Positions 1,526 through 19,154 of a DNA stretch of 64,000 nt are shown here, piece by piece (the stretch's first letter is position 1; every line of letters begins with the position of its first letter). The stretch lies in NCBI GenBank assembly GCA_000146465.1, contig CP001949.1. One strand, written 5' to 3'. The notes beneath the pieces were generated by a model. It worked only from the letters and a program-made list of their open reading frames with translations. It was not told where the DNA came from and ran no database searches. A program made the position numbers and the translations under genes.

Positions 1526-3325
1526 ATGGGCGAGGAGAAAGACACAAAGAAGAAGAGGGTTTCGTTTGCACCTGAGCCTCAGGTGATGTATATATATCCT
1601 GAAGAGGAGAACAAAAGCAACAAGGCTGTAGACTCTGGAATGATGAGCGAGGATGAGATATCTGTGGAGCTGACGGTAGATCATCTTCGAGGGAGGAAGA
1701 CAGAAGACGGAGGAGATGGAGAATTTTTGAATGCAGAGCTGAAGGATTTGATGGAGGATAGTGAGGTTGGGTATGGAGCCATGGGTGACAACAGTGGAAA
1801 AGAAGATGAGGTGGAAAAAGAGAAGTGCAAGGAGAACTATGGGGTGGAGGAAGGAGAGATTAAAGAAGTCAAGGATGATGAAGAGTGTAAGGAAGGAGGG
1901 GCTGAGAACAGCGAGACAGGGTGGAGAGAAGGGCCCTGTAGGAATGAACAGGAGGAATTTGAAGATACTCTGATGAGCAATGAGACAGTGAATGTAGAAG
2001 AGATCATCAACACCCAAGATCTTCGGAAGATAATTCCACAAGTGAGGAAAGAGATGGTGAATGTTTCTGAGCTACTGGTTTCCAAAGGAATCAGATTTCT
2101 GGACAGTCTTGTTGTGTCGAATACAAGAAGGGATACAATGTCGAAGTCGCGGAACGAGGTACATCCTCGGCAGGAAAGGTTCTACGAGAGTTTCCTGGAG
2201 CCTCGGACACGGTTCTTCTTGGAGTTCAGTTCTGATCTTGAGGATAGGATGTTGCGGCAGGAGAAGGTGAACGAGGAGCTGGAAAGAGAATTCAGGATTG
2301 CAGGGACTGTTTTTGAGAGCCCGGATGCCTCAAGCCTTCTGAGAGCTTTGAAGACGGAATGCCGGATGAAGTCTAAGATTGAGTGGTATGAGCTTCGTAA
2401 AGAGAAGGAAGTTGAGTTCAATAGAGAGGTAACTGATAGAAGGAATCGGCTTGCTGAAGAGTATAATCATCTTGGAGGATGTCTGAAGGAAACCTCTGAG
2501 AAGGTTGAAGAGAGTAAAAGAAGGAATGAAGAGATGGAGGAGCAGATACGCAGAATAAAGAATAGGCTTGGGATGGATGGGGATGGGAGGCACCAGAAGA
2601 TCTCTGAGCTGAGAGCATTGATGAGTAAGCAGGAGGGAACGATTGAGAGTGGAAGGAAGGAAGTGAAGAGACTTGAGGAAGAGAGAACAAGGAAGCAAGC
2701 CGAGAGACGTGTGCTGAAAGAAGCATTGGAGAAGATGGAGATGGAAATTAGAGACCTTGAGGAAGTGTTAAAAACCCAAAACATAACCGAGGGTGATGTG
2801 AAGGAAATAAGACAGGAGTTCCGGACATTGTGTGCAGCCTTTGGAATGGAACTAATGAAAGTAGATACAAGCGAGGTTAGGCTCCGAATACTGGAATACA
2901 ACCTCAAGATAAATCTAGGGGCTGGCTTCGTGATTGAATCGATTGAAGCCACTCCTCTGTGCGATAGAAAAGACCTGGGGCATCTCTACCACCACTTCGG
3001 AAAATACTTTGAAGGAAAGGGATGCAGCTTCTTCAAGGGAATTAGAGACGCCATGTTTATGTCGGCGATGGTGTCAGGGCTATGTAAAGAGTTGTCTGGA
3101 ATTAAGAAAAGACACTCTGTAGAATGCAGCGGGGAAGACAACGAAGCCATTGTTAGGATCTTAGCATTGGATGTGGAAAAGTGCACCAAGCATGAGATTT
3201 CCATCAAGATAAAAAATGGATTTGAATGCTTGATCCAATGGAAAGACAGAAGCCAGATGTGGGATCTTAAGAAGGATGTAGGTATAATATCCAGATCGGT
3301 CGAAGAAGCACTTGCAAATCGCTGA
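1526..3325 (+). CDS. Acidic coiled-coil protein with an N-terminal RVxF (KKKRVSFAPE) PP1-docking motif; candidate KNL1/Spc105-like kinetochore scaffold or another PP1 regulatory subunit
   Basis: ORF 1184..3325 trimmed to the first plausible ATG at 1526 (MGEEKDTKKKRVSFAPEP...). The protein has an acidic, low-complexity N-terminal half, a long heptad-rich E/K/R coiled coil in the middle and a C-terminal globular region. Confidence 0.4.
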   Translation: MGEEKDTKKKRVSFAPEPQVMYIYPEEENKSNKAVDSGMMSEDEISVELTVDHLRGRKTEDGGDGEFLNAELKDLMEDSEVGYGAMGDNSGKEDEVEKEKCKENYGVEEGEIKEVKDDEECKEGGAENSETGWREGPCRNEQEEFEDTLMSNETVNVEEIINTQDLRKIIPQVRKEMVNVSELLVSKGIRFLDSLVVSNTRRDTMSKSRNEVHPRQERFYESFLEPRTRFFLEFSSDLEDRMLRQEKVNEELEREFRIAGTVFESPDASSLLRALKTECRMKSKIEWYELRKEKEVEFNREVTDRRNRLAEEYNHLGGCLKETSEKVEESKRRNEEMEEQIRRIKNRLGMDGDGRHQKISELRALMSKQEGTIESGRKEVKRLEEERTRKQAERRVLKEALEKMEMEIRDLEEVLKTQNITEGDVKEIRQEFRTLCAAFGMELMKVDTSEVRLRILEYNLKINLGAGFVIESIEATPLCDRKDLGHLYHHFGKYFEGKGCSFFKGIRDAMFMSAMVSGLCKELSGIKKRHSVECSGEDNEAIVRILALDVEKCTKHEISIKIKNGFECLIQWKDRSQMWDLKKDVGIISRSVEEALANR

Positions 3326-3410: not shown

Positions 3411-3773
3411 TTATAATTTGTCCTTCTCTTCTTCGGAGTCCTGGGGCTTTGAATTCCCCGGGAGTGCATAGTACTCTTGCAGAGACCGGTTGAAGTCTTC
3501 AAGACATCTTATCAGTACGTCTTCCTCCATGTTCTCAACCTGCATTCCCTCGTACAAAGAAACAGCCTTTTCATAAACAAGTCTCTGATGCTGGATGGAC
3601 TTGGATAGAAGCTCCAGGTCCTCCTTAGGACATGTCTCCGAGATATCCCCAACAACCCTGTCTAAGATGGTTCTAAGAACAGACAAGCTTTCGAGATGCT
3701 CTCCTTTTCTTATGGCTTTCTCTAGCTTTAAGTAGTTCTCCCTGTCCATAGGAAGGGCCACGAATCTAAACAT
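3411..3773 (-). CDS. Hypothetical protein (120 aa)
   Basis: Clean ORF in a tight intergenic context; no recognisable motif. Confidence 0.4.
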   Translation of the reverse strand: MFRFVALPMDRENYLKLEKAIRKGEHLESLSVLRTILDRVVGDISETCPKEDLELLSKSIQHQRLVYEKAVSLYEGMQVENMEEDVLIRCLEDFNRSLQEYYALPGNSKPQDSEEEKDKL

Positions 3774-3911
3774 TTGATTCCAGGAAGCCTAGATTAAGAA
3801 TTAGATTTTGAAAGCTCCCAGAAATATCTTAATATATAGTCCAGTGATATAATTCTCAATTGATATCTATTTAATTAAAGGATAAAAAGCCAGAGCATCC
3901 AAACTCTCTTA

Positions 3912-4876
3912 ATGGAGAAGAATCAGGCCGAGCCAGAAAAGAACATAAGTTACACAAAACTTGCATTTTTCTTTTTCGTAATAAGAACAGTAGTAATAGG
4001 TCTGGCCTTACTATCGGGACCATACTTTGCACTAGATGACGAAACAACAACATTCAAGATGTTTATAATTTTCTTGGACATAACAAACATATTACAGTTT
4101 ATATTTCAATGGGACATAATTCAGCGTAAGATTCTATTTCAATATCTTCTATATATTCCTGTCCTTGCTTACTCTCTGACTCTTACAATCACGTTAATAG
4201 TTGATGCACACAATACTAACAGTTGTAACTTCAAAGTAGAAGGTAAAATTAAGAAATTAGCTATTGGATATATCTATACATATATGGGAATTCTTCTTGG
4301 GGAAGTTGCTCTCCTTCCAATCATATACAGAAGACTCAAGAGTGACTTTATGTGGGCAAACTTCAAAAAGCTAGGAGCTAACACAGCTATTAATGGTAAG
4401 TGGAGATAAGTAATTTTAGATGCCTTCGGGAGGAGAGAACAGTTTAGTGCAATAAGAAGATTTATGTTGATTTTTCTGTGTGGAGAAGTTGCAAGTTTCA
4501 ATATAAGCATAAGAGATAACAAAGATGTCTTCTTTTTTGTAGCAGGGACACAGATATTTGTGATTTTCCTTTCTTTTATATTTTTCAACGAAGAATATGT
4601 ACATCAGAGAAGGTTTCTTCTGGGATTTTCCGGACTGTGTACATTAGGAGGAATAGCATACACTGTGATTTATATTGTTATGGCTAGTAGGAGTAGCGAA
4701 ATAAGAAAGTAAGTGAAGATGTTAATTTTAGAGGAGTTATTTCCGAAATTGTATTCTATACAATTACAATGCTTATTTTCTTTGTTGGAGCCTTTAGGGA
4801 TTATCAGACATTTGGGAAGGGACTAAAAGATTATTATAGTGGAAGTCTTGGAATAAGAAAAAAACTCACACCTTAG
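3912..4876 (+). CDS. Three-exon multi-pass membrane protein, ~305 aa after splicing; exons 3912..4395, 4420..4708 and 4732..4876
   Basis: ORFs 3912..4409 and 4464..4712 each end at a TAA embedded in GTAAGT. Removing introns 4396..4419 and 4709..4731 joins both in frame to a third exon that stops at TAG 4874..4876. All three exons encode hydrophobic helices. Confidence 0.55.
4396..4419 (+). other. Spliceosomal intron 1 (24 nt) gtaagtggagataagtaattttag
   Basis: Canonical GTAAGT 5' splice site and TAATTTTAG 3' end. Removing it restores the reading frame across the two ORFs. Confidence 0.55.
4709..4731 (+). other. Spliceosomal intron 2 (23 nt) gtaagtgaagatgttaattttag
   Basis: Same GTAAGTG...TAATTTTAG architecture. 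The apparent stop TAA at 4710..4712 lies inside it, and the downstream exon stays open for 47 codons with a transmembrane-like segment. Confidence 0.45.
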
Positions 4877-4894
4877 GCAGAGCAGAATACTTTT

Positions 4895-5298
4895 CCACGA
4901 GACAATAAAAACCAAAGACTTTATTTCTCTTGGGGACTCCCCGCATACACCGTCATCCGGCTGTTCCCCAACACCTTCTCAATCACCCCCTCAGACGCTA
5001 GGTGCCGCAACACATTCTCCGCAACCCCGAGGTTCAGATTGTACTTGCTCCCAACACCATACCGCGTCACAACACTCGCTCGGCACACATCCTTGCGCAC
5101 CTTCGACAGGAGCTCCTCGGTCACCGTCACTCCCCTGCGCACTTCCTCCTTCTTCTTTCCGTCGCTCCACTTCTTCTTGTCCTTCCTTGTTCCAGACATG
5201 GCCTTGAGTGCCTTCTTCTCCTTCGACTCCTGGATCTTCTTGGCCATTTGTGGGAGTCCAATTTTCCCACTTCAAATCCCATCCCAGAAACTCCCAAA
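4895..5298. repeat. Left arm of a ~404-bp inverted repeat carrying a complete RPS25 gene; the right arm is at 6723..7127
   Basis: The reverse complement of 4895..5298 matches 6723..7127 at both boundaries. The encoded 108-aa RPS25 ORFs and the antisense shadow ORFs are identical in both arms. Confidence 0.8.
4921..5247 (-). CDS. RPS25: 40S ribosomal protein S25 (eS25), copy A
   Basis: 108 aa MAKKIQESKEKKALKAMSG...VTRYGVGSKYNLNLG..., the typical eS25 lysine-rich N-terminus and conserved core. Confidence 0.85.
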   Translation of the reverse strand: MAKKIQESKEKKALKAMSGTRKDKKKWSDGKKKEEVRRGVTVTEELLSKVRKDVCRASVVTRYGVGSKYNLNLGVAENVLRHLASEGVIEKVLGNSRMTVYAGSPQEK

Positions 5299-5365
5299 GA
5301 AGCCCATAGCCTCCGAATGCCAGGAGTGGATTTCTGGATTGGAAAAATTTGCCCTCAATCTAAAG

Positions 5366-5812
5366 ATGGCAAAGATGCATTCTAGCGGAAGAGGACGCTC
5401 GGGGAGCGTTAAGCCGTATGCAACAGTGTTTCCAACATGGCTGACAAAGACGGCTGATGAAATTAAGGCCGATGTTATCCAGATGGGAAACAAGGGGATT
5501 CCTGCACCTGATATAGGGAAAAAGCTAAGAGACGAATATGGAGTCGGAAATGCCAAGGACGTCCTGGGGTGTGAAATCACAAAGTTCCTTGAAGAGAATG
5601 GGGCATCTCCAAAGATCCCATTTGATCTTGAGTCTCTGGTTCGCCGAGCGAACACCCTCCGAAGTCACTTGAACATCTATAGGAAAGACAACTCTGCAAA
5701 ATACAGACTTATCCTTGTTTCATCCCGGATGTATCGTGTTGCAAGGTACTACAAGCGCAAGATGAGGATTCCAGGGAACTGGAAGCCAAAGCTTGTTGAG
5801 CTCATTAAATGA
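5366..5812 (+). CDS. RPS13: 40S ribosomal protein S13 (uS15)
   Basis: MAKMHSSGRGRSGSVKPY...RLILVSSRMYRVARYYKRKMRIPGNWK is a hallmark S13 sequence. ORF 5039..5812 is trimmed to the internal ATG at 5366, which sits behind a ggaaaaatttgccc upstream motif. Confidence 0.85.
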   Translation: MAKMHSSGRGRSGSVKPYATVFPTWLTKTADEIKADVIQMGNKGIPAPDIGKKLRDEYGVGNAKDVLGCEITKFLEENGASPKIPFDLESLVRRANTLRSHLNIYRKDNSAKYRLILVSSRMYRVARYYKRKMRIPGNWKPKLVELIK

Positions 5813-5930
5813 TCTTCTTGAAGTCTCGAACTGGCTGTTTCAAGGCCACCTCTGTGTGTTTTTGACGTCTTTCCAACAGGCGATTTTATTTGCGAAGAGA
5901 GGTATATTTTGTGAAAAACAAACCCCGTGA

Positions 5931-6626
5931 ATGTATGAGGAGCTCTTGAACTTTCTGCTGGCGAGGAAGAAGAGGCTGCTGTCTGAGGAAGAGGCCGATA
6001 GACTTATGGAGCTTATTACCCAGTCGATGGAAGCCAGAGAGGGCCGGGAAGGGAAAGAGGACAATACAGCATTGATAAGGAAGATCCTCGAAAATGTGGA
6101 TATGGACCAAGCTTACGAAACAGACACTGAGAGCATGGAAAATGCTATGGAAGATTTGCTTTTTGATGGCTACAGCAGCGAAATTTACAGCAACGATACT
6201 ATAGACTTGAGCGAGTCTGACAACGACACAGAGCCTCTGTCTGAGCGGAAGTTCCAGAGAGGAGAGTTTAGAGCTGGAGTGAAGGCTTCTGAGAATGAAG
6301 AGGAGCCGAAGAGGAGGATTGGGCTCAAAGACAAAGCAAAAGAAGGGGAATGGAAGGATCTGTCGGGAGGGAAGGATAACGATCTCCAACCACCAAAGGA
6401 TAGCACAGGAGTTCTGTCGGAGGATGGGGAAGGCCCCAAGAGAAGGGAATTCAAGCTCCCTGGATTTAGTAAGGAGAAGAAGGAGAGATCATTTGAGATG
6501 AGGGATGGCGGGGACTTTAACTTGCCAGGGTCTGTGGAATTTGAGTTTGATCTCGGAGAACTAAAGAAGGTGAATAATACCGGGCCGAATGTGAAGTTTT
6601 TCGACGAGGATGGAGAAGAGATCTGA
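5931..6626 (+). CDS. Hypothetical acidic, low-complexity protein (231 aa)
   Basis: ORF with D/E/S-rich composition lying between RPS13 and the right repeat arm. Confidence 0.4.
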   Translation: MYEELLNFLLARKKRLLSEEEADRLMELITQSMEAREGREGKEDNTALIRKILENVDMDQAYETDTESMENAMEDLLFDGYSSEIYSNDTIDLSESDNDTEPLSERKFQRGEFRAGVKASENEEEPKRRIGLKDKAKEGEWKDLSGGKDNDLQPPKDSTGVLSEDGEGPKRREFKLPGFSKEKKERSFEMRDGGDFNLPGSVEFEFDLGELKKVNNTGPNVKFFDEDGEEI

Positions 6627-6722
6627 AAGTCTTTGGTTTTGAATGTAGAGTAATAGTGACTGTTTTATGGATGAATTATCTTTATTAAAGTAGCAAGTTC
6701 TCTCAATGATTGTGTTTTTTCT

Positions 6723-7127
6723 TTTGGGAGTTTCTGGGATGGGATTTGAAGTGGGAAAATTGGACTCCCACAAATGGCCAAGAAGATCCAGGAGTCGAAG
6801 GAGAAGAAGGCACTCAAGGCCATGTCTGGAACAAGGAAGGACAAGAAGAAGTGGAGCGACGGAAAGAAGAAGGAGGAAGTGCGCAGGGGAGTGACGGTGA
6901 CCGAGGAGCTCCTGTCGAAGGTGCGCAAGGATGTGTGCCGAGCGAGTGTTGTGACGCGGTATGGTGTTGGGAGCAAGTACAATCTGAACCTCGGGGTTGC
7001 GGAGAATGTGTTGCGGCACCTAGCGTCTGAGGGGGTGATTGAGAAGGTGTTGGGGAACAGCCGGATGACGGTGTATGCGGGGAGTCCCCAAGAGAAATAA
7101 AGTCTTTGGTTTTTATTGTCTCGTGGC
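6723..7127. repeat. Right arm of the inverted repeat; identical RPS25 copy
   Basis: See the left arm; boundaries determined by base-level comparison. Confidence 0.8.
6774..7100 (+). CDS. RPS25: 40S ribosomal protein S25 (eS25), copy B
   Basis: Identical 108-aa protein to copy A, on the opposite strand. Confidence 0.85.
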   Translation: MAKKIQESKEKKALKAMSGTRKDKKKWSDGKKKEEVRRGVTVTEELLSKVRKDVCRASVVTRYGVGSKYNLNLGVAENVLRHLASEGVIEKVLGNSRMTVYAGSPQEK

Positions 7128-7192
7128 AGCATTGGAACTTTTCTGTTGAGTGGCTGTTATCTTAAAATATCGCATTAAAAATTTACCCCACA

Positions 7193-8674
7193 ATGACATA
7201 CAGAGGGTATAGTGGAGATAGAAGAGGGTTTCGGACGTCGCCCAGATTTGACAGAGGGGGCAGATATCCTCCTCGGGAAAGACGTGAGGGACAGAGATAC
7301 GATCCTCTTCCAGAGCTTCCTCCTGTGGAGTTTCAGAAGAACTTCTACAAGGAGGCGGAGTCTATCAGTAGAATGAGTTCGCGCGATGTCGATTCGTTCA
7401 GGAAGACAAACGAGATGACGGTCAAGGGGATGGATATTCCACATCCGATCAGCCGGTTTGAGGAGGCAGGGTTTCCCTCTAGGATTGTGGAGGAGCTTGA
7501 AGGAAAGGGATTCAGTGGGCCCACGCCTATCCAAGCACAAGGATGGCCGATGGCATTAAGCGGAAGGGATATGGTAGGGATTGCACAGACTGGATCTGGA
7601 AAGACACTGAGTTTTATTCTTCCTGGGCTTGTGCATGCAAAGGATCAGCAGCCTCTGCGAAGAGGGGACGGGCCTATTGCGCTTGTGCTTGCGCCGACTC
7701 GGGAGCTTGTGATGCAAATCAAGAAAGTTGCCGACGAGTTCTGTGGGATGTTTGGACTAAGGAGTACAGCGGTTTATGGAGGAGCTTCATCGCAGCCACA
7801 AATAAAGGCTTTGCATGAGGGGGTAGAAATAGTTATTGCAACTCCTGGAAGGTTGATTGACCTGCATGAGCAAGGGCATGCACCGCTTAGCAGAGTGACA
7901 TTCCTTGTTCTTGACGAGGCCGACAGGATGCTTGACATGGGGTTTGAGCCGCAGCTCCGAAAGATTATTCCAAAGACAAATGGAAACAGACAGACATTAA
8001 TGTGGAGTGCAACATGGCCGAGAGAGGTGCGAGGACTGGCAGAAAGCTACATGAATGATTACATTCAAGTGGTTGTTGGAAATGAAGAGCTTAAGACAAA
8101 CAGCAAGATCAAGCAAGTGATTGAAGTCTGTAGTGGACGTGAGAAGGAGGACAAGCTGCTTGGAGTTCTTGACAAATTCAAGGGAGACAAGGTCATTGTG
8201 TTCTGCAACATGAAAAGAACATGCGACGATTTGGAGTATGTTCTGAATAGATCTGGGTATGGGGCTGCAGCATTGCATGGAGACAAATCGCAGAACATTC
8301 GAGATAAAGTTCTTGATGACTTCCGATCAGGGAGGAGGCCGATTCTAATTGCCACAGAGGTTGCAGGAAGAGGACTTGATGTAAATGACGTCAAGCTTGT
8401 GATCAACTTCGACTTCCCAGGGACATGCGAGGACTATGTGCATCGAATTGGAAGGACGGCAAGAGGCAACACAAAGGAGGGGATATCGCATACATTCTTT
8501 ACAATCAACGACAAAGGAAATGCACGGGAGCTGATCCGGATGCTAAGAGAAGCCAATCAGACGGTTCCTTCTGATCTCGAGGACATGGTGAGAGTGTCGA
8601 ACGATAGATATGGATCCAGGGGTGTCAAACACGACTACAGAGGAAGACCTGGGAGATTTCCTTATCGAGGATGA
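7193..8674 (+). CDS. DBP2: DEAD-box ATP-dependent RNA helicase, Dbp2/p68 type
   Basis: Q-motif (GFSGPTPIQAQ), AQTGSGKT, PTRELV, DEAD (LVLDEADRM), SAT, HRIGRTAR, and an RGG-like N-terminus. Confidence 0.9.
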   Translation: MTYRGYSGDRRGFRTSPRFDRGGRYPPRERREGQRYDPLPELPPVEFQKNFYKEAESISRMSSRDVDSFRKTNEMTVKGMDIPHPISRFEEAGFPSRIVEELEGKGFSGPTPIQAQGWPMALSGRDMVGIAQTGSGKTLSFILPGLVHAKDQQPLRRGDGPIALVLAPTRELVMQIKKVADEFCGMFGLRSTAVYGGASSQPQIKALHEGVEIVIATPGRLIDLHEQGHAPLSRVTFLVLDEADRMLDMGFEPQLRKIIPKTNGNRQTLMWSATWPREVRGLAESYMNDYIQVVVGNEELKTNSKIKQVIEVCSGREKEDKLLGVLDKFKGDKVIVFCNMKRTCDDLEYVLNRSGYGAAALHGDKSQNIRDKVLDDFRSGRRPILIATEVAGRGLDVNDVKLVINFDFPGTCEDYVHRIGRTARGNTKEGISHTFFTINDKGNARELIRMLREANQTVPSDLEDMVRVSNDRYGSRGVKHDYRGRPGRFPYRG

Positions 8675-8813
8675 TCTCCAGATTGGACAACTCAAAAACA
8701 AAAGATACTGAATGAACCAGGGGATCCTTGGCTCTCGGAAGTTACCTTCTACTTTGGAGAGAAGCCAGATAAAATTCATCAAATAAAATTTTGTTTAATA
8801 TAATCTTCAGGGC

Positions 8814-18713: not shown

Positions 18714-19154
18714 TCAGTTGATAGACGATGCTTGGGATGATATCTTAGGCCACATGTCGGCAACTTCTCTGGGGACTGGGCCAGCTATCTGGGCTCCTCT
18801 CAACTCTCCCTTGTTGTTGATGAGGACTGCAGCATTGTCCTCAAACATAATGTGAGATCCATCTGTGCGCCTCCAGATCTTCTTCTGCCTTATAAGAATG
18901 GCATAATGCACCTTTTTTCGGAGCTCAGGCTTTCCCTTTTTAACGGACACGACACATATATCCCCAGGCGCTGCTGCAGGAAGCCTGTTGAGCCTTCCTC
19001 TGTACCTCTTTACTCCAATGCATCGGAGGATCTTTGCTCCACTATTGTCGGCACATTTCATGAGAGTCTCCACCTGAACACCCCTTGTTATCTTGTTGCG
19101 GGGCTTTATTGAGATCTTCTTCTCAAGAACTTCTGTCTTCTTCTCGGCAGCCAT
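18714..19154 (-). CDS. RPL23: 60S ribosomal protein L23 (uL14)
   Basis: CADNSGAK...[30 protein letters not shown]...[17 protein letters not shown] matches the uL14 core. Confidence 0.85.

Follow-up and report, generated by a model that had tools for sequence, protein, structure and literature searches.

How does a chromosome come to hold two identical copies of one ribosomal-protein gene as the arms of an inverted repeat, and what keeps the copies identical? Encephalitozoon species have the smallest known nuclear genomes, and the cores of their chromosomes are described as almost perfectly collinear and repeat-free. The question is raised by a stretch of 64,000 nucleotides (nt) from contig CP001949.1 of GenBank assembly GCA_000146465.1, hereafter the window, in which two genes for ribosomal protein eS25 (S25) enclose the gene for ribosomal protein S13 and a gene for an acidic protein. 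The answer argued for here, which we regard as very probable, is that the locus is an old inverted duplication of eS25, whose arms have been homogenised by arm-to-arm gene conversion and whose spacer has been flipped by crossover between the arms.

A repeat search of the window returned two arms, at positions 4895-5298 (minus strand) and 6723-7126 (plus strand), each 404 nt in length, which are 100% complementary to one another and separated by 1424 nt. The left arm adjoins a flank that carries the p112 gene and a membrane-protein gene, and the right arm adjoins a gene for a DEAD-box helicase. No other direct or inverted repeat of at least 40 nt is present in the 64-kb window; the eS25 pair is the only one of this size, which rules out chance as its source. 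An initial annotation made from the sequence had described the arms as reverse-complementary with matching boundaries on both sides. This holds for the perfect 404-nt repeat, except that the right end had been set one base too far, at 7127; the C at 7127 is unpaired with the T at 4894, and the right arm therefore ends at 7126.

Each arm contains an open reading frame (ORF) of 108 amino acids, at 4921-5247 on the minus strand (left copy) and at 6774-7100 on the plus strand (right copy), the two having the same sequence. The ORF matches the Pfam family Ribosomal_S25 (PF03297) over residues 6-102 (E-value 2.6e-26; 92 bits, against a cut-off of 28.8), as well as chain D5 of PDB entry 7QEP, the eS25 protein of the solved Encephalitozoon cuniculi ribosome (E-value 1.8e-51). 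With a significant full-length profile match and a ribosome-chain match, the ORFs of both arms are eS25. Both copies point outward, with their 5' ends toward the spacer, and the arm starts 51 nt upstream of the eS25 ATG and ends 26 nt past its stop codon. The upstream part of the right copy contains promoter signals at 6756-6769 (plus strand), consisting of AAAATT (6756-6761) and CCC (6767-6769), which were recognized from the sequence and from its conservation across species; the left copy has the mirror image of these signals, likewise within the arm, at 5252-5265 (minus strand). The CCC signal is followed by ACAA-ATG. In microsporidia, a signal pair described as AAATTT-like plus CCC-like precedes ribosomal-protein genes (Peyretaillade et al., 2009; PMC2803860). 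The S25 signal of E. cuniculi has been tabulated as AAAAAATGTAGTCCCAA (PMC2803860), and the same AAAAAATGTAGTCCCAA is present in the E. cuniculi arms. At the 3' end, an AATAAA polyadenylation signal overlaps the eS25 stop codon (7096-7101 on the plus strand, mirrored at 4920-4925 on the minus strand); AAUAAA is used in E. cuniculi (PMC2803860). As the promoter signals, the coding sequence and AATAAA fill nearly all of it, each arm is a complete minimal eS25 transcription unit and hardly anything more. No tRNA and no Rfam family was found between positions 3000 and 9000. Two complete, identical and outward-reading eS25 genes, with promoters facing the S13 spacer, were what the initial annotation had read from the window, and the ORFs, the Pfam and PDB matches and the signal motifs all bear this out.

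The repeat has counterparts in independently assembled sequence. The identical eS25 protein is encoded on CP075165.1 of assembly GCA_024399295.1, which is chromosome VIII of Encephalitozoon intestinalis ATCC 50506 and on which the window corresponds to approximately 123,536-187,535. The genome of ATCC 50506 has been assembled telomere-to-telomere (PMC12697097), using Flye on Nanopore reads, with PacBio reads also generated and Illumina reads used for polishing by Pilon (PMC10158259). In addition, E. intestinalis ATCC 50507 has a SPAdes contig of 1424 nt, on record in three samples, that coincides exactly with window positions 5299-6722, with one mismatch. An assembly of 151-nt reads that isolates exactly the spacer is what would be expected from a true two-copy inverted repeat.

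The same architecture, that is, the left flank, eS25 on the minus strand, S13 and the acidic-protein gene, eS25 on the plus strand and the DEAD-box helicase gene, is found in eight other assemblies. The arms are 421 nt long and 99.8-100% identical in E. cuniculi (GB-M1, sequenced by Sanger; LFTZ01; and ATCC 50602, sequenced by Nanopore), 401-410 nt long and 99.0-100% identical in three assemblies of Encephalitozoon hellem, and 380 nt long and 99.5% identical in one assembly of Encephalitozoon romaleae. In Ordospora pajunii, the contig runs from the flank through eS25 (minus strand), S13 and the acidic gene and breaks off after 182 nt of a second arm, which repeats the first in inverse orientation; a full eS25, identical to that of O. 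pajunii, lies downstream of the acidic gene on another contig, from a JGI metagenome. Orthologous inverted repeats with the same flanking genes are thus present in four Encephalitozoon species and O. pajunii. Two Nosema-clade contigs, on the other hand, carry a single eS25 directly upstream of the orthologue of p112, the gene that lies on the left flank in Encephalitozoon, and Vittaforma corneae has a neighbourhood of ELP3, DEAD, the acidic gene and S13 without eS25 (JH370154.1, 3114-6441). These arrangements place the left copy at the ancestral eS25 position and make the right copy, next to the helicase gene, the derived one. The duplication is thus younger than the split from the Nosema clade and older than the one between Encephalitozoon and Ordospora.

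Despite this age, the two copies have evolved in concert. The two eS25 coding sequences are 100% identical within the genome in seven of eight genomes, as compared with 80-86% identity between Encephalitozoon species and 75-77% between these and Ordospora, and the left and right copies are paired by species in a neighbour-joining tree. Synonymous divergence (dS) of eS25 is 0.39-0.78 between species, whereas the paralogues differ at none of approximately 74 synonymous sites; the eS25 protein itself changes by 17-20% between species. The identity of the paralogues also extends into non-coding sequence, for 45-53 nt upstream and 8-46 nt downstream, and then falls abruptly to random-level matching. 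Paralogues are therefore more alike than orthologues, at synonymous and non-coding sites included, which is the pattern of concerted evolution. Among E. hellem strains, three sites of the coding sequence are variable, and each strain has the same allele in both of its copies; homogenisation thus outpaces the divergence of strains. Differences between arms do occur on occasion, at 1 of 421 positions in GB-M1 and at 4 of 407 in one E. hellem strain. In E. hellem L011 (JAGEXW010000001.1), a C-to-T change at codon 109 of the helicase-side copy creates a stop codon, so that the two copies encode 108 and 109 amino acids. Such rare single differences are evidence of two physically separate copies and of conversion in episodes. 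Ongoing gene conversion had been one of two explanations offered by the initial annotation for the identical copies, and it is supported by the contrast between identity within genomes and divergence between species, together with the single-nucleotide polymorphisms shared by the E. hellem copies.

Base composition provides a further trace. The G+C content at third codon positions (GC3) of eS25 is 0.77, against a mean of 0.49 +/- 0.06 for 57 non-overlapping ORFs of the window. The next-highest value for a real gene in the window is 0.57, and the other ribosomal-protein genes in it are ordinary in this respect (S13, 0.50; uL14 at 18714-19154, 0.54). Overall G+C content likewise steps sharply from 31-35% in the region of the membrane-protein gene (3750-4950) to 56% in the eS25 arm (4950-5250). 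Compared with the mean of the neighbouring genes, eS25 GC3 is 0.77 versus 0.50 in E. intestinalis, 0.78 versus 0.61 in E. cuniculi, 0.75 versus 0.45 in E. romaleae, 0.71 versus 0.51 in O. pajunii and 0.69 versus 0.61 in E. hellem. The excess is clear in four of the five repeat-bearing species, weaker in E. hellem, and absent from the single-copy eS25 genes of the Nosema clade, which have a GC3 of 0.34 in Nosema granulosis (neighbouring genes, mean 0.41) and 0.42 on the Nosema-like contig L016 (neighbouring genes, range 0.26-0.50). Long-continued GC-biased gene conversion would account for this excess. The footprint is supportive of arm-to-arm conversion, although not defining for it.

The spacer between the arms differs in orientation between species. 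With the unique flanks used to orient each locus (p120 on the minus strand, the membrane protein and the DEAD helicase on the plus strand), E. intestinalis has the order eS25(-), S13(+), acidic gene(+), eS25(+), whereas all three E. cuniculi assemblies, all three E. hellem assemblies and the E. romaleae assembly have eS25(-), acidic gene(-), S13(-), eS25(+). In nucleotide alignments with E. cuniculi, window positions 3463-5265 and 6756-8679 are collinear, while for 4900-7121 a reverse alignment alone is obtained; the pattern is the same with E. hellem and E. romaleae. Most of each arm is covered by alignments in both directions. The switch points thus lie inside the arms, as expected of a crossover between them. 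A spacer that differs in orientation, flanks that are collinear and switch points in the arms form the pattern of a repeat-mediated inversion. The initial annotation had pointed out that the repeat would permit the spacer to flip-flop; the inversion between species bears this out, while reversible flip-flop inside one population is conjectural.

The locus of O. pajunii is collinear throughout with that of E. intestinalis, and the number of inversions depends on the phylogeny. A tree built from five genes at the locus (1,300 aligned residues) has the topology (O. pajunii,(E. cuniculi,(E. intestinalis,(E. hellem,E. romaleae)))), with 76% bootstrap at the key node, in agreement with the published phylogeny of the genus. 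A single inversion would suffice under one topology only, that with E. intestinalis basal, and its support is 0.2%. Taken at face value, the tree and gene orders would imply at least two inversions; just one is certain if the path of the O. pajunii contig through the first arm is unreliable. The orientations of E. intestinalis one way and of E. cuniculi and E. hellem the other are robust, being supported by long reads or Sanger sequencing. Each species has a single orientation among the three E. cuniculi and the three E. hellem strain assemblies, and flips look rare. After inversion, S13 still faces an eS25 promoter and the 3' end of the acidic gene still abuts one. Since the ends of the arms are identical, every junction between gene and promoter is left unchanged, and the inversion is probably neutral.

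Perfect identity over 404 nt could have other origins. It has the look of a collapsed or copied repeat, and polishing can homogenise repeats, so that an assembler might have mis-joined or duplicated a single eS25 gene, the alternative that the initial annotation had kept in reserve. There is practically no chance of such an artefact: the ATCC 50506 assembly was built from long reads, the same structure recurs in sister species that were assembled independently from Sanger or Nanopore data, in some cases with 1-4 differences between arms, and the ATCC 50507 short-read contig stops, in its three samples, exactly at both inner arm edges. The same 100% identity might merely reflect youth, if eS25 had been duplicated very recently and in E. 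intestinalis only. A very recent origin, which the initial annotation had also proposed, has to be given up, as three other Encephalitozoon species and Ordospora carry the same inverted pair between the same flanking genes and the orthologues differ by 14-25% in nucleotide sequence. Nor would purifying selection alone, acting on an old duplication without gene conversion, be a credible source of the identity. eS25 is indeed a conserved ribosomal protein, yet its synonymous sites and non-coding flanks are identical between the copies while they diverge between species, the protein itself varies between species to the extent given above, and strain-specific polymorphisms are common to both copies. 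Conversion could, finally, have taken place via complementary DNA (cDNA) of the abundant eS25 mRNA instead of by exchange of DNA between the arms. The homogenised tracts hardly exceed the length of the gene, ribosomal-protein mRNAs are abundant, and cDNA donors have been inferred in other fungi, namely yeasts and Mucoromycota (Mullis et al., 2020; PMC6993855). The cDNA route is nevertheless unlikely. Identity reaches 45-53 nt upstream of the ATG in every species, whereas the 5' untranslated regions measured in E. cuniculi are shorter than 7 nt (PMC2803860), a discrepancy that read-through transcripts could blur. Furthermore, conversion by cDNA would not flip the spacer, and a further recombination event would have to be invoked for the inversion, whereas exchange between the arms covers both conversion and inversion.

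Inverted repeats around an invertible segment are also the anatomy of programmed switches, in which site-specific recombination flips a segment for the purpose of gene regulation. It is very unlikely that the eS25 locus is one of these. No recombinase is encoded in or beside the segment, the spacer consisting of S13 and the acidic protein and the flanks of the membrane protein and the DEAD-box helicase; the arms are whole genes rather than short recombination sites; inversion alters no junction between promoter and gene; and the E. cuniculi strains share one orientation, as do the E. hellem strains. A foldback or terminal-inverted-repeat transposon was considered as well and rejected: the outer flanks, ending in AATACTTTT before the left arm and beginning with CAGCATTGG after the right arm, share no direct repeat and thus have no target-site duplication, the arms are a housekeeping gene, and the window holds no further copy. 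Some observations do weigh against an old duplication that recombination has homogenised and flipped. The orientation of the arms is known only as the consensus of each assembly, so that recombination is deduced rather than observed. Polishing by Pilon with 151-nt reads over 404-nt arms may have erased a rare difference between them, and the figure of 100% is perhaps slightly flattering; the arms of the Sanger-based GB-M1 assembly match at 420 of 421 positions. The count of two inversions depends on one arm-crossing O. pajunii contig and on the node with 76% bootstrap. Lastly, eS25 of E. hellem is no outlier at its GC3 of 0.69, as one of its neighbours has 0.70.

If the eS25 locus is an old inverted duplication maintained by recombination, its history is probably as follows. 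A complete eS25 transcription unit was duplicated in inverted orientation before Encephalitozoon and Ordospora diverged. Non-crossover recombination would then copy one arm onto the other, which is gene conversion; it would keep the arms near-identical in each genome while the species diverge, and would drive the third positions of eS25 toward G and C. A crossover between the arms would instead invert the 1.4-kb spacer with S13 and the acidic-protein gene, and would have done so at least once. We infer homologous recombination between the arms as the source of both homogenisation and inversion from what the genomes display directly, namely the repeat, its conservation and age, its concerted evolution, the GC3 excess and an inversion with switch points in the arms. 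The persistence of both copies may plausibly be helped in several ways. In an inverted geometry, recombination would flip the segment rather than delete a copy; conversion would erase defects that arise in a single copy; and a two-fold dosage of eS25 may be of benefit. There is also a small chance that the S13/acidic-protein segment is a long-lived and actively flipping cassette, both orientations of which would coexist in clonal populations, with the eS25 pair selected as a self-correcting two-copy dosage module. Were this so, the segment might tend to gain bracketing inverted repeats (compare contig L015, below), and one of the most reduced eukaryotic genomes would harbour a functional recombination hotspot.

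The unique spacer, which is the invertible segment, occupies 5299-6722 (1424 nt) and matches the whole of the ATCC 50507 contig. Its first gene, divergent from the left eS25 copy, encodes ribosomal protein S13 (uS15; 5366-5812, plus strand), with the Pfam domains Ribosomal_S13_N (PF08069) and S15 (PF00312). The second (5931-6626, plus strand) encodes a protein of 231 amino acids with an isoelectric point (pI) of 4.5, having 60 aspartate and glutamate residues versus 36 lysine and arginine residues; it has no Pfam match even at an E-value of 5 and no relative in the PDB, and it is found in Encephalitozoon, Ordospora and Vittaforma. The Pfam domains and the pI agree with the initial annotation, which had placed RPS13 and an acidic-protein gene in the spacer. 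Conservation of the neighbourhood with ELP3, the helicase, the acidic gene and S13 reaches as far as Vittaforma corneae, in which the acidic gene and S13 are divergent and not tandem. A scan of JGI metagenome contigs by alignment with eS25 found no relatives. A relative (L015) is found in a Logan contig of SRR21023573, 2391 nt in length, whose S13 is 79% identical to that of E. intestinalis. Here, S13 and the acidic gene are flanked not by eS25 but by two outward-reading, diverged N-termini of the neighbouring, p165-like membrane-protein gene (1-195 and 2197-2391), which are 90% complementary over their last 51 nt, at the contig end. In this relative, a different inverted repeat seems to enclose that pair of genes.

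A 15-mer, AAAGTCTTTGGTTTT, lies right after the stop codon of the acidic gene (6626-6640); in both arms, the same 15 nt come after the eS25 stop codon (7099-7113 and 4908-4922). The two stretches match far less well in E. cuniculi, E. hellem and E. romaleae. Ectopic conversion over a short tract could have produced the shared 15-mer, or it could be a common signal at 3' ends that is peculiar to E. intestinalis. On the right, the unique flank contains the DEAD-box helicase gene (7193-8674, plus strand; Pfam DEAD and Helicase_C), which is collinear in all Encephalitozoon species. The left unique flank contains the membrane-protein gene (3912-4712, plus strand), which is collinear in all species and consists of two ORFs and a 24-nt intron at 4396-4419. 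This intron, GTAAGTGGAGATAAGTAATTTTAG, joins ORFs of 165 and 82 amino acids in frame, and the spliced product is a single multi-pass membrane protein of 258 amino acids. E. cuniculi, E. hellem, E. romaleae and O. pajunii have an intron of the form GTAAGT...AATTTTAG (GTAG in Ordospora) at the same site. In the telomere-to-telomere record of E. intestinalis, the split of this gene into two looks like an annotation error.

Both eS25 genes are already annotated in public genomes. Five ribosomal-protein genes of E. cuniculi, L3, L24bis, L35, L23A and S25, bear the mark '(D)' (Peyretaillade et al., 2009; PMC2803860), which is here taken to mean duplicated. The initial annotation had called a duplicated ribosomal-protein gene unexpected in a genome so reduced; it is unusual here but, by this mark, not unique. 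The genes L3, L24bis, L35 and L23A lie outside the window and might share the inverted geometry and the concerted evolution. In the literature, no description was found of the inverted repeat at this locus, its conservation in Ordospora, its concerted evolution, its GC3 footprint or its repeat-mediated inversion. The main text of the telomere-to-telomere paper contains no mention of inversion, 'inverted', rearrangement or S25. Two inversions were counted, without detail, by Corradi et al. (2010), and the spacer inversion may be one of these. As regards its consequences, an identical pair that is conserved, a GC footprint and an inversion in a chromosome core mean that homologous recombination still shapes the chromosome cores of Encephalitozoon. 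Short-read assemblies will always break or guess at the eS25 locus, and reads that map to both copies confound expression estimates and SNP calls for eS25. At the same time, the locus can serve as a natural assay of recombination, mitotic or meiotic, in a group whose sex and recombination are hard to study.

Among ribosomal-protein genes, the closest likeness is with the fungal paralogues of Mullis et al. (2020; PMC6993855), which have been homogenised repeatedly in separate species and cluster by species, and for which conversion was proposed to help both paralogues be retained; Microsporidia and Encephalitozoon are not mentioned in the main text of that paper. Those paralogues are dispersed, having arisen by whole-genome duplication or retroposition, only their coding sequence is homogenised, and a cDNA donor is inferred. 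The eS25 copies, in contrast, are 1.4 kb apart and inverted, their promoter is homogenised too, and the spacer between them has also been inverted.

Inverted repeats around an invertible segment are likewise a feature of the FLP/FRT system of the yeast 2-micron plasmid and of the bacterial Hin/Gin systems, from which the eS25 locus differs in that it lacks a recombinase gene and short recombination sites and that its inversion has no regulatory effect. Primate sex-chromosome palindromes are reported, in work on the X and Y chromosomes, to undergo arm-to-arm gene conversion. As at the eS25 locus, their inverted, gene-bearing arms (said to be >99.9% identical) are conserved across species and evolve in concert, with a GC-biased signature and known inversions of the spacer; their arms, however, reportedly measure 9 kb to 1.45 Mb and carry testis-expressed families, whereas the eS25 arms measure 0.4 kb and carry a single housekeeping gene in a 2.6-Mb genome. 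On the eutherian X chromosome, the recurrent FLNA-EMD inversion is said to have flipped a unique, gene-bearing segment repeatedly across lineages by non-allelic homologous recombination between repeats that also evolve in concert, although its arms are approximately 11 kb long and its orientation is polymorphic within humans. The inverted repeat of plastid genomes, known for its flip-flop isomers, reportedly has copies kept identical by conversion and a single-copy region inverted by recombination; its isomers, however, coexist in equimolar amounts in every cell, whereas the eS25 locus has one orientation per assembly, on which strains agree. Inverted repeats that are homogenised by conversion and that flip their spacer are thus a well-known phenomenon, of which the eS25 locus is a tidy new example, mechanistically ordinary.

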